Source of the DNA: Mustelus asterias
Taxonomy: Eukaryota
Direction of reading: 5' to 3'
DNA: 64,000 bases
NCBI RefSeq assembly: GCF_964213995.1
Contig: NC_135821.1
Span: forward strand, 4,650,001 to 4,714,000
A program made the translations under genes and the position numbers. A model generated the notes under the pieces. It saw only the letters and a program-made list of their open reading frames with translations. It was not told where the DNA came from and ran no database searches. This document shows positions 12,297 through 63,764 of the stretch, one piece after another (positions within the stretch are counted from its first letter, which is position 1; each line of letters opens with the position of its first letter).

Positions 12297-15200
12297 TCAG
12301 TCCCTCTCCCCCAGGGTGAGCCTGTCAAACAGGTACTCTCCCATGCCATTCTCAGGGGCTCCCAGTCTCTTCAGGTTGGTGATGTGATCTCCAAGCTTCT
12401 TGATCATCTTCACTTGTTCATCCAAGTAGTGAGTCTCCAGGAAGTCACAAAGCTGGGGAAAAAAATAATAAATATTAGTTTGAAAAATGCATAAAGTTCA
12501 GTTTCACAAGTAGGCTTACATTCACACTGCAATGAAGTTACTGTGAAAATCCCCTAGTTGCCACACTGGTGCCTGTTTGGGCACATGGAGAATTTAGCTT
12601 GGCAAATGCACCCAACCTGCACATCTTTGGACTGTGGGAGGAAACCCACGCAGACACAAGGAGAATGTGCAAACTCCGCACAGACAGTGACCCGAGCTGG
12701 GAACCAAACCTGGGTCCCTTGCACTGAGGCAGCAGTGCTAACCACTGCCACCCATTAGCTCAGTACTAGAGGACATTCTGAAGTTCACAATTCTTGATCC
12801 TTTCCCTGTTATATTCCCAGATGAGATGTATTCTAGGAGAGAATTAGAACTGGTTCCATCACTTCAATTCTAGTGCCCCAATACCTCTCCCAATAGGAAA
12901 AGACCTGAAGCTGACCAAGCTTATTGGCTAGGGAGTCCATCAAATATGATGGGATCAATTAGACTGCCAATAACTTGACAGACCATCCATCCATGTCAAA
13001 GCAGCCACTTGATTGGCATCCCTTCCACAACCAAACCAGTGCTACCATCTACCAAGATGCATTGCAGGAACTTGCCTACACTCTAGTAGCACCTTCCAAA
13101 CACAAAAAAAAAAGCATTTAGACAGTTACATGGGCAAGATGGCTAGAGGGATATGGGCCAAATGTGGGCAATTGGGACTAGTGCATGGAAAAGGGTGGCT
13201 GAAGGGCCTGTTTCCATGCTGTAAACGTCTATGACTCTCTGCTACCATCTAGAAGCACATTGGCAGCTGGAGTCACCACCATCCCAACATGGAATAATAG
13301 TCACCATTCCTTCACTATCACTGGGTCAAATTCTTGGAACTTCCTTCCTAACAGCACTGTGGGTGTACCTACTCCATTGTAGTGGTTCAAAGGCAGCCTC
13401 TCGCCACTTTTAAGGGCGAATAAGAATGGGCAATTAATGATGACCTCACCAGCAATGTCCACATCCCATAAATGAAAAACTGACAAAACAGTCCAAAACA
13501 TAATACATTAGGAACTTATGCAAGGAATTGACTTGATTTATTGCCACACACGAGTATAGTGAAAAGTATTGTTTCTTACACTATATAGGGGAGGAGGGAG
13601 TGGAGAGAGTTAGTCAAAGAACAACAAAGAATACAGCACAGGAACAGGCCCTTCGGCCCTCCAAGCCCATGCCGCTCCCTGGTTCAAACTAGACCATTCT
13701 TTTGTATCCCTCCATTCCCACTCCATTCATATGGCTGTCTAGATAAGTCTTAAACGTTCCCAGTGTGTCCGCCTCCACCACCTTGCCTGGCAGCGCATTC
13801 CAGGCCCCCACCACCCTCTAAAATATGTCCTTCTGATATCTGTGTTAAACCTCCCCCCCTTCACCTTGAACCTATGACCCCTCGTGAACGTCACCACCGA
13901 CCTGGGGAAAAGCTTCCCACCGTTCACCCTATCTATGCCTTTCATAATTTTATACACCTCTATTAAGTCTCCCCTCATCCTCCGTCTTTCCAGGGAGAAC
14001 AACCCCAGTTTACCCAATCTCTCCTCATAACTAAGCCCCTCCATACCAGGCAACATCTTGGTAAACCTCCTCTGTACTCTCTCCAAAGCCTCCACGTCCT
14101 TCTGGTAGTGTGGCGACCGGAACTGGACGCAGTATTCCAAATGCGGCCGAACCAACGTTCTATACATCTGCAACATCAGACCCCAACTTTTATACTCTAT
14201 GCCCCGTCATATAAAGGCAAGCATGCCATATGCCTTCACCACCTTCTCCACCTGTGACGTCACCTTCAAGGATCTGTGGACTTGCACACCCAGGTCCCTC
14301 TGCATATCTACACCCTTTATGGTTCTGCCATTTATCGTATAGCCCCTCCCTACATTATTTCTACCAAAATGCATCACTTCGCATTTATCAGGATTGAACT
14401 CCATCTGCCATTTCTTTGCCCAAATTTCCAGCCTGTCTATATCCTTCTGTAGCTTCTGACAATGCTCCTCACTATCTGCAAGTCCTGCCAATTTTGTGTC
14501 GTCCGCAAACTTACTGATCACCCCAGTTACACCTTCTTCCAGATCATTTATATAAAATCACAAACAGCAGAGGTCCCAATACAGAGCCCTGCGGAACACC
14601 ACTAGTCACAGGCCTCCAGCCGGAAAAAGACCCTTCCACTACCACCCTCTGTCTTCTGTGACCAAGCCAGTTCTCCACCCATCTAGCCACCTCCCCCTTT
14701 ATCCCATGAGATCCAACCTTTTTCACCAGCCTACCATGAGGGACTTTGTCAAACGCTTTACTAAAGTCCATATAGACGACATCCATGGCCCTTCCCTTGT
14801 CAACCATTCTGGTCACTTCAAAAAACTCCACCAGGTTAGTGAGGCATGACCTCCCTCTCACAAAACCATGCTGACTATCGTTAATGAGTTTATTCCTTTC
14901 TAAATGCGCATACATCCTATCTAAGAATCTTCTCCAACAACTTCCCCACCACGGACGTCAAGCTCACCGGCCTATAATTACCCGGGTTATCCTTCCTACC
15001 CTTAACAGGACCACATTAGCTATCCTCCAATCCTCTGGGACCTCACCTGCGTCCAGTGACGAGACAAAGATTTGCGTCAGAGGCCCAGCGATTTCATCTC
15101 TCGTCTCCCCAAGAAGCCTTGGATAGATTCCATCAGGCCCTGGGGATTTGTCAGTCTTTATATTCTCTAACAAACCTAACACTTCCTCCCTTGTAATGGA

Positions 15201-61925: not shown

Positions 61926-63764
61926 TCAGTTGAGGGCGAGCCTGTCAAACAGGTACTCTCCCATGCCATTCTCAGGGGCTCCCAGTCTCTTCAGGTTGGT
62001 GATGTGATCTCCAAGCTTCTTGATCATCTTCACTTGTTCATCCAAGTAGTGAGTCTCCAGGAAGTCACAAAGCTGGAAAGGAAAGACAGGAGAAATTAAT
62101 GTGTCAAGTCAAACATGGAAGATCTTTTCCAGGAGAGAGAGTTACCCCCATCTTGCACTGGGTGGATGGGGAAAGTATTACAACTGGGTAATTTTAGTTA
62201 ATGCATACAAGTAGCAAGTCACAATTCCATTAAACTGGGAGTGAGTGCCTCAAGGAACAGAGGTCTCAGAATCCAAAAGCCTTGGTAACATTTCAGTGAC
62301 ACAGATCCAAGGTTTGGATGGCCTCTGCTTATAAACTCAGCAACTGAAAGCTCAGACTGAAGGACAGATTCCAGTATCAACATCCAACTTACATGAGGGT
62401 CGGTGTTCCCAGAGGAGAGTTTGTGCAGATCCAGCAGACTCTGGTTCACATTCTTCTCCATCTGCAGAGCTCTCTGCATGGCCTCCAGACCATTGCTCCA
62501 CTCATCCTGCTCTGGCTTCTGAAAGGAGACAAAATAGATCTGGGTAGTGCCATGGGATGTTACCTTGGGAACCATTACATCAGTCCCTCAATTAAAGGTG
62601 ACAGGGGTAGAATCAAAGCCCATTCTCTGCACCAGAGAGAATCAGCACAAAGTTTAAGCCAGTTTACAGCCCAGAACCCCATTTATTGTTGCTTTAGCCA
62701 TTAGCTCAGGGTGATCCAAAGGTCAAAGCCACACCAACTCATCATGCACCCATTCTCAGGTCATGAGGAATGTAGGTAGTAGGAACCCAAGGATGCAATG
62801 GGAAAATGAACTAAACTATTTAAAAATAATGTGGCATCAAGAGGACAGAATCCAACCTTGACATCCTCCAGGATGACTCTGCCTCCACGTTTATTCTGGA
62901 ATTCCATCAGTTTCTCAGCGTGTTCCCGTTCCTCATGTGACTGCTCCTTGAAGAACTCAGCAAAGTGACGCAGGGCAACATCATCCCGGTCAAAGTAAGA
63001 GGACTGTGGGTAAAGAGTCAGAGCAGAGATTATCCATGGGCCACTTGGAATTTAGAACAACCATCACAGATCATTTCCTTACTCAGGAATGGGTTCAAGT
63101 TTAGCTTCAACCATCAACCCATGTTTAATCCAATAGTGGGACATTCTTTCCTTCTCCCCCACCATGGAGACTTTAAAAATCAATGCTTAAAGTAGAAAAA
63201 CTTCAATTTAATCCAATTCATTGCTCCTGGAATGATTTAACCTTGGGGGAAGGAAAGCTCAACACAACAGGATTTACCCATTTAGAATGGCAGAGGGAGG
63301 AGAACATTCATAAGTGGTCACCCAATTAGATTACTTCCATTCAAGTTGGATAATTCAATTAGATTCATGCAGCTCATGAATCCACCAAGGGGATAGATTC
63401 AGAGTTGCCCAGTCCACTCTGCAAAGAAAGATGAGTCTTCTGTTGGAAATTTAATGGAGCCTGTTTCAGATGGAAACTCTTCAGAATCAGGTCAAGTTAT
63501 TACAGACAGGGAGCAGTCTGTTAACAAGATCTTGTCCCTCAATAACATTTATCAGCAACAACTATCATTTAAAGCCAAATTCATTGGCAAAGATATTGCA
63601 CCTGCTCAGAGCACAACCAGACCATTATTTTAAATTTAAACCCCAAAAATCACAAAGCTCACCATGGAGAGATAAACATAGGAGGAATAGAGCTCCAGGT
63701 TGATCTGCTTGTTAACAGCATCCTCACAGTCCTTGTGGTAGTTCTGACACACTTGGGAAGCCAT
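61926..63764 (-). CDS. Ferritin subunit, copy 7, 173 aa, 4 exons
   Basis: Exons 63663-63764, 62857-63003, 62393-62518 and 61926-62072 (ends DRLALN*). Open frame with GT-AG introns. AATAAA at 61853-61858. Confidence 0.96.

Follow-up and report, generated by a model that had tools for sequence, protein, structure and literature searches.

Seven Ferritin Genes Without an Iron-Responsive Element in a Shark Tandem Array: Exon-Limited Homogenization and a Probable Role in the Ovary

The stretch studied here (the window) comprises 64,000 nucleotides of the shark Mustelus asterias (NCBI RefSeq assembly GCF_964213995.1, contig NC_135821.1, positions 4,650,001 to 4,714,000, forward strand) and carries seven ferritin genes, g1 to g7. 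The best reading of this array, which we consider probable, is that of a dosage-amplified, cytosolic ferritin of the ovary, namely of the oocyte, produced from mRNAs devoid of the iron-responsive element (IRE). Judging from protein sequences, the array is most likely a slice of the shark cluster called "FTH1b" by Yang 2026 and FTH1/FTL by Sahm 2024. This cluster has been published for the Greenland and white sharks, and the array itself is not new. The two papers differ on its meaning, one stressing ovary-specific expression and the other ferroptosis and longevity. What is added here is the homogenization of the exons, together with the absence of the IRE, the very short 5′ untranslated region (5′UTR), the common promoter and the near-zero somatic reads of the published tables, the last four of which favor the provisioning of eggs.

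Organization of the Ferritin Genes

All counts concern the 64-kb stretch only: the seven genes are the copies inside it, and the promoter of g7 runs to its edge. Self-comparison of the window and an exon-seeded search placed the seven genes head-to-tail on the minus strand, each with four exons. The exon lengths obtained by scripted splicing are 102/147/126/147 nt in g2 to g7, exon 4 of g1 being longer (156 nt), and the predicted products have 176 amino acids for g1 and 173 for the six others. All 21 introns present GT..AG borders, the seven frames are open, a TATA motif (TATAAATA) is found 62 to 76 nt 5′ of every ATG and an AATAAA signal 37 to 93 nt 3′ of every stop codon. The preliminary description of the locus was exact. 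The array extends from the stop codon of g1 (12297) to the ATG of g7 (63764), with an ATG-to-ATG spacing of 5.2 to 12.3 kb between copies and introns of 299 to 3428 nt whose content differs from copy to copy.

From the predicted transcription start site (TSS) to the polyA signal, g1 occupies 12216..19958 (exons 19827-19928, 18452-18598, 15881-16006 and 12297-12452); it encodes the long C-terminal tail, and its introns were enlarged by insertions of short and long interspersed elements (SINE and LINE). Then come g2 at 27539..32240 (exons 32103-32204, 28706-28852, 28078-28203 and 27623-27769), g3 at 36118..38438 (38303-38404, 37297-37443, 36827-36952 and 36217-36363), g4 at 42127..45107 (44962-45063, 43176-43322, 42648-42773 and 42173-42319), g5 at 48616..50885 (50748-50849, 49582-49728, 49126-49251 and 48659-48805), in which His62 of ferroxidase site A is replaced by Tyr, g6 at 56655..58582 (58448-58549, 57624-57770, 57147-57272 and 56701-56847) and g7 at 61853..63797 (63663-63764, 62857-63003, 62393-62518 and 61926-62072).

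About 1 kb downstream of g1 lies a decayed exon 4 on the same strand (11166..11236). It bears two deletions, its acceptor is mutated, and its alignment score of 65.5 compares with a maximum of 28 for shuffled sequences. No matching remnant of exons 1 to 3 or of a promoter was found in the window; since only exon 4 of this dead copy is left, dead copies appear to escape homogenization and then to erode.

Promoters and Absence of the IRE

The seven promoters, all on the minus strand, follow the same layout. That of g1 (19955..20140) consists of two Y-box/CCAAT elements, a C-rich tract, the TATAAATA motif at 19990 and a pyrimidine-A initiator 32 nt downstream. The promoter of g2 (32237..32420, TATA at 32272) is of this g1 type, and the others were located at 38435..38610 for g3 (TATA at 38470), 45104..45277 for g4 (TATA at 45139, with a 9-nt deletion directly upstream of it), 50882..51063 for g5 (TATA at 50917), 58579..58750 for g6 (TATA at 58614) and 63794..63904 for g7 (TATA at 63829, the proximal Y-box alone being retained). 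The initiator is found exactly 32 nt below the start of the TATA motif in every copy, which predicts 5′UTRs of 30 to 44 nt. A Y-box (CTGATTGG) occupies positions -65 to -74 in the seven promoters and a second one positions -133 to -145 in six of them; CCAAT/ATTGG is present 2 to 7 times per promoter, versus 0.8 times per 200 nt across the window. E-boxes are not conserved among the promoters, as they occur in g1 and g6 only. Some oocyte genes typically have promoters with Y-boxes, though these boxes are not oocyte-specific.

In the g7 promoter, a LINE fragment (63905..64000, no strand assigned) stands in place of the distal half and abuts the proximal Y-box. The sequence of this fragment recurs in a LINE within intron 3 of g1, near 13830-13930, and a sister LINE copy at 22420-23643 matches RVT_1. 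The g7 gene is intact although the fragment removed its distal promoter.

Vertebrate ferritin mRNAs normally bear an IRE. Here, an Rfam scan of both strands of the 64 kb (E<=5, without a positive control) gave no match to an IRE family, the pattern C-N5-CAGWGH-N5 matched three times in the 64 kb and never within a 5′UTR, and the 30 to 44 nt of 5′UTR delimited by the predicted TSS contain no IRE-like hairpin in any of the seven copies. The CAGTGA motifs seen in the 5′UTRs of g3, g6 and g7 were rejected as IREs, having no IRE stem. The 5′UTRs of these three copies also present a pyrimidine tract and CAG directly before the ATG, an arrangement like that of a splice acceptor, so that an alternative upstream exon is possible. 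Each copy is a compact TATA/Y-box gene with a short predicted mRNA. As this mRNA would lack an IRE, its output would be set by the number of genes and their transcription, and not by cytosolic iron through the iron regulatory proteins 1 and 2 (IRP1/2).

Features of the Encoded Subunits

A close Mustelus protein aligns without gap to the frog M ferritin (E 2e-83), which fixes the numbering of the residues. The residues E24, Y31, E58, E59, H62, E104 and Q138, which we take to be residues 27, 34, 61, 62, 65, 107 and 141 of the human H chain, are kept in six of the seven proteins, the exception being the H62Y change of g5, and H115, C127, D128 and E131 are found in all seven. From their established roles, we assume that the former constitute the di-iron ferroxidase center and the latter belong to the three-fold channel. 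At H-chain position 62, where L-type subunits have Lys, the seven proteins have Glu, which is not the L-type residue. Position 141 is a Met (Val in g2) and an Asp in frog M, and position 170 is a Leu. Taken one exon at a time, the translations match Pfam PF00210 in three of four cases, for exon 2 of g5 and of g6 and exon 3 of g6, and exon 4 alone has no match.

No signal peptide was detected in the seven proteins, which makes classical secretion unlikely: over the first 33 residues the 9-residue hydropathy does not exceed 0.61, and none of the 5′UTRs holds an upstream ATG. The product is thus predicted to be cytosolic and, from the ligands kept in six copies, ferroxidase-competent. In exon 2 of g5 (49582-49728), H62Y is accompanied by N71D, and this copy is possibly a loss-of-activity or L-like variant. 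Position 6 is a Cys instead of the usual Arg in g2 to g7 (6/7); this change is common across shark copies and could add disulfides at the surface.

Expression and Probable Function

In the reading that we favor, the ferritin subunit would most likely be made in bulk by the growing oocyte, and ferritin would stock and detoxify iron for a large, lipid-rich yolky egg. The window subunits probably co-assemble with the L-like (Lys62-type) subunits found on the same chromosome in other sharks. The preliminary description had proposed a dosage amplification for a tissue of high demand, with the oocyte listed first. Besides the IRE-free 5′UTRs, two published observations support this proposal: the expression of the Greenland-shark FTH1/FTL clusters, which the accessible part of Sahm 2024 (10.1101/2024.09.09.611499) describes as ovary-specific, and the near silence of the cluster in fin and blood in the tables of Yang 2026 (PMC13214024). 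According to the available portion of the latter, the Greenland shark has 59 FTH1b copies in two tandem clusters. The counts of its Dataset S4 cover 38 of these 59 models. In fin, 33 of the 38 have zero reads and five have 1 to 2 reads; in blood, 35 have zero reads, two have 1 to 2 and one has 46 (21 transcripts per million, TPM). In bony fishes, ferritin transcripts are reported to be abundant in zebrafish follicles (excerpts of PMC1488847), and a ferritin subunit is the predominant transcript of a salmon library from perinucleolar-stage (primary-growth) follicles (excerpts of PMC2262088). Maternal-fetal transfer, also listed by the preliminary description, had to be abandoned as the origin of the locus, because the cluster is carried as well by Scyliorhinus, Chiloscyllium, Hemiscyllium, Stegostoma and Heterodontus. 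These five are egg-laying sharks.

Several points weigh against an oocyte ferritin. The window contains no L-like (Lys62-type) gene that could provide the partner for co-assembly, and no canonical cytoplasmic polyadenylation element (CPE) was found in the seven 3′UTRs. Y-box/CCAAT elements are common in many types of promoter, and a whole ovary contains follicle cells and possibly epigonal (granulopoietic) tissue. The identity with the published cluster is deduced from a protein clade, not from synteny, in a tree built without Greenland-shark sequences. In the accessible text of the preprint, which deals with another shark order, the ovary-specific expression is the matter of one sentence (10.1101/2024.09.09.611499). 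Lastly, PMC13214024 reports that some FTH1b copies are active in fin and blood, the model with 46 reads in blood is among the FTH1b rows, and two neighboring models are strongly expressed, one of them at 1,035 TPM in fin and 12,102 TPM in blood. These two may be housekeeping members of the locus.

The strongest rival keeps the ovary and changes the cell: follicle cells or epigonal granulocyte tissue would make the ferritin, either to withhold iron (nutritional immunity) or to export it to the egg as a protein. We regard it as unlikely. In sharks the gonad and the epigonal organ are closely associated, and the lack of CPE in the 3′UTRs speaks for such a source, as does the fact that the published expression, in the available text of Sahm 2024, comes from whole ovary. 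Export by the classical pathway is hardly compatible with the absence of a signal peptide in the seven proteins, and blood, which carries granulocytes, gave no read for 35 of the 38 Greenland-shark copies in the available part of Dataset S4. Moreover, immune effectors are often diversified, whereas the present copies are homogenized, with a ratio of nonsynonymous to synonymous differences of ~0.3.

Exon-Limited Homogenization

Over the 21 pairs of coding sequences (CDS), the mean proportions of synonymous and nonsynonymous differences (pS and pN) are 0.043 and 0.013, respectively. The identity stops at the exons: in the 11 pairs involving g1 or g3 used for this profile, ungapped identity drops from 0.95-1.0 to 0.2-0.5 within 10 to 20 nt of every exon edge, of the start codon and of the end of the frame. 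The intron ends of g1, g2 and g3 give 0.54 to 0.66 matches per base, when shuffled sequences give means of 0.52 to 0.54 and maxima of 0.57 to 0.59; the introns of g4 to g7 are often alignable, up to 0.97 (0.65-0.97 for intron 1). The 100 bp above the TATA motif present 0.71 to 0.93 matches per base among copies. Codon bias was rejected as the cause of the low pS: identical degenerate codons amount to 152/158 for g1-g2, 157/161 for g1-g3 and 155/158 for g2-g3, far over the 0.54 expected at saturation under the codon bias of the gene itself.

Other DNA data from the window demand exchange between copies. The four-gamete test fails in 18 of the 28 pairs of informative sites. The closest partners change along the genes, with g1, g2, g4 and g5 set against g6 and g7 in the 5′UTR, g4 to g7 together in intron 1, g4-g5 and g2-g6-g7 in intron 3, and g4-g6 in the 3′ flank. 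There are 29 variable coding sites, 14 of them within 15 nt of exon edges (p 0.002, or p 0.005 by codon), a crowding that includes the N-terminus, which may be less constrained.

The same question was addressed across species with 324 labeled shark and sawfish proteins, from which 151 full-length members of the class containing the window genes (class A, see below) were kept and 173 dropped as partial, fused, L-like or fth1a. For residues 1-165 of these 151 proteins and the seven of the window, the label of the order requires seven changes (minimum 6, shuffled mean 86), and the label of the short or long tail requires 30. In 12 of 13 groups, the distances between short- and long-tailed proteins within a species (0.03-0.12) are smaller than those between like-tailed proteins of different orders (0.10-0.16); Carcharodon is the exception, with nearly equal distances in the case of long tails. 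Short tails are of several kinds (ending in N, S, H or D, with a few GE ends), so that their class may be old or may have arisen more than once. The window family shows concerted evolution, in its proteins across species and in its DNA within the window.

The mechanism that we propose for this pattern is repeated gene conversion and unequal exchange, which would keep the coding exons and the core promoter nearly identical. Selection would retain the conversion events in coding DNA and leave the introns and UTRs to drift. An mRNA-templated conversion is unlikely, since the UTRs are not homogenized, the untranscribed promoter is, and all introns are kept in the seven genes.

A second rival, also unlikely and slightly more so than the first, explains the near-identity of the exons by very strong purifying selection, the slow clocks of sharks and recent birth-and-death duplication, the copy number resulting largely from neutral unequal crossing-over. 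The alignable introns of g4 to g7 indeed indicate that some copies are recent duplicates, the dead exon 4 is a sign of turnover, and Ks values are low in sharks (0.02-0.37 between two squaliforms in the accessible part of PMC13214024). The grouping by order is, taken alone, also expected from lineage-specific duplication, a further point in favor of this rival. Selection on the protein is nevertheless insufficient, because synonymous sites are far above the saturation level: they are 96-98% identical among g1 to g3, whose flanking introns are mostly at shuffle level. The failures of the four-gamete test and the regional mosaicism need exchange between copies, and all seven complete copies are intact. 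In a vertebrate lineage that evolves slowly, the array offers a clear example of concerted evolution acting exon by exon. It also warns that, for the ferritin family, copy counts and "lineage-specific expansion" calls drawn from protein trees are misleading.

Relatives and Ancestry

Of the 396 candidates found by a search with exon 4, 213 proteins were retained at E<=1e-15, and the best 120 of them are almost all from sharks. Seventeen clusters sum to 932 member sequences, a figure that should not be read as a number of genes because isoforms and repeated annotations enter into it. The member lists, which cover 20 clusters with up to 15 members each, include 13 named shark species from six orders, plus a sawfish. 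The comparison with other chondrichthyans suggested by the preliminary description bore fruit: the array is not peculiar to one genome but ancient, shark-wide and far over seven copies. In each species most copies lie on one chromosome (for example, one of 26.9 Mb in Stegostoma, of 27.7 Mb in Scyliorhinus canicula and of 33.1 Mb in Carcharodon), which holds two classes. The window genes belong to class A; the other class is L-like and has Lys at position 62 of the H chain. Identity between the window proteins and the annotated shark copies included in trees is 88-98%, and the nearest ones, from Mustelus asterias, reach 98%, none of the eight compared being identical. This marks the host as a carcharhiniform close to the houndsharks.

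In quick trees, the window genes, shark class A and the sawfish proteins constitute one clade (support of 98 in the SH-like approximate likelihood ratio test, SH-aLRT). Class A and elasmobranch fth1a form separate clades (supports 99 and 98), so the window genes are not fth1a. In free quick trees, class A groups with the shark L-like class and reptile FTL at a support of 86, and no placement among A+FTH1 (p 0.65), A+M (p 0.65) and A+B (p 0.475) is rejected by approximately unbiased (AU) tests. The g1 protein shares 73-76% identity with shark and axolotl FTH1 and 63-65% with reptile FTL, values that do not fit the 90% identity to human orthologues given by Sahm 2024; our references were shark, axolotl and reptile sequences. 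In Heterodontus, the last part of a fused model is a third, M-like ferritin beside class A copies, a weak hint at the M/L locus. In Scyliorhinus torazame, a class A ferritin is joined in one model (P0083) to a receptor tyrosine phosphatase that has many fibronectin-III repeats, which suggests that such a gene flanks the cluster; the fused model yielded no usable name for synteny. Shark "ferritins" of ~262-267 amino acids with doubled exons 2-3 (P0030, P0234 and P0239) were disregarded as being probably gene models that span neighboring copies, because oyster, Lingula and coral entries (P0259, P0266 and P0272) show the same pattern. P0235, a 90-amino-acid fragment labeled as a Salmonella ferritin, clusters with the shark proteins and is probably a mislabeled or contaminant record.

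A term search of the main texts of Sahm 2024 and Yang 2026 did not return "gene conversion", "concerted" or "responsive element", and the abstract and a term search of the Yang 2025 preprint did not return ferritin. Our literature search, whose scope left out most subscription papers, found no article on IRE loss or conversion in the cluster.

The breadth of the clade bears on the reading of Yang 2026, a body-wide defense against ferroptosis and lipid peroxidation tied to a high content of polyunsaturated fatty acids or to longevity, which we find improbable. In the available parts of PMC13214024, shark genomes generally hold more FTH1b copies, the longest-lived shark has the most (the 59 mentioned above), and some are active in fin or blood. 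The same parts concede that the expansion occurs outside long-lived sharks, and most of the 38 copies counted in Dataset S4 have zero reads in fin and in blood. The 13 species of the clade include small, short-lived sharks, and genes without an IRE cannot give an iron-sensed translational control. It is this IRE-free, promoter-sharing, exon-homogenized anatomy that makes the case against longevity.

The weakest rival, a false or haplotypic duplication of the assembly, is very unlikely, as the preliminary description had anticipated, because all 21 CDS pairs differ (at 5 to 15 of 516 sites), most intron ends of g1, g2 and g3 align like shuffled controls, the introns differ in length and content, and the same expansion is found in independent shark assemblies.

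A wider proposal, whose chances we place somewhat below even and which we advance tentatively, is that sharks have a dedicated maternal ferritin system of tens to hundreds of IRE-free genes, maintained by exon-limited conversion for >200 million years and giving a bulk oocyte product independent of iron status, the link to longevity being a misread reproductive trait. If true, it would be the cytosolic vertebrate counterpart of invertebrate yolk ferritin, with genes interchangeable like those of histone or rRNA arrays.

Other Features of the Window

The remaining sequence of the window reads as SINE and LINE, and the two long open reading frames (ORFs) tested match RVT_1. Inspection by eye of the 40 ORFs of at least 120 amino acids revealed no other cellular gene. 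A tRNA-Thr(AGT) gene or pseudogene (27411..27485, minus strand, 54.6 bits) lies ~55 nt past the polyA signal of g2; it is not found beside the other copies, and its position is probably incidental. Among the 11 Rfam matches at E<=5 on both strands, this tRNA alone is above the gathering score, and the others were regarded as chance or SINE-derived. Tandem Repeats Finder returned 15 rows in the window, none within the ferritin exons; a 52-bp tandem array (1640-2189, 10.6 copies) is made from a SINE-internal segment.

Comparison with Known Systems

The closest systems are the shark clusters of Sahm 2024 and Yang 2026, which are likewise tandem, with four-exon and mostly full-length genes, and which the accessible parts of these papers report as ancient and general to sharks. 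Among better-known ferritins, the window proteins resemble the amphibian and reptile M-type by their best PDB matches (frog M ferritins, such as bullfrog M, 1mfr), aligned without gap, by the 176-amino-acid length of g1 and by their intact ferroxidase center, yet they are just 70-73% identical to it. They also differ at position 141, which is Asp in frog M and either Met or Val in the window proteins, and by the Leu at 170, an L-type residue of the four-fold channel. Bullfrog ferritin mRNAs bear IREs, contrary to the window genes. Turtles have multi-copy "heavy chain A-like" arrays, with clusters of 50, 48 and 26 members. These M-type ferritins (P0119, P0255, P0279 and others) lie on a ~44 Mb chromosome, and their expansion parallels that of sharks in a further lineage whose eggs are yolky. 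The true H chain of elasmobranchs, fth1a, shares the fold and the ferroxidase ligands, but it forms one conserved 20-member cluster, each species having roughly a single gene, which lies on another, larger chromosome, and g1 is 73-74% identical to it.

As putative egg-provisioning ferritins, the window genes recall the yolk ferritins of the invertebrates Lymnaea and Schistosoma. In the snail, the oocyte takes up a yolk ferritin that has been secreted, whereas the shark copies have no signal peptide and are amplified in tandem. Schistosoma ferritin mRNAs are without IRE, according to a title cited in PMC1488847. Finally, the contrast between coding and flanking DNA is like that of mammalian KRTAP1 (10.1101/282418), for which the available text describes a homogenized coding DNA with an abrupt switch at both the initiation and the termination codon, ascribed to short-tract gene conversion and selection; in the shark array, this pattern recurs exon by exon across three introns and extends to a core promoter of ~100 bp.

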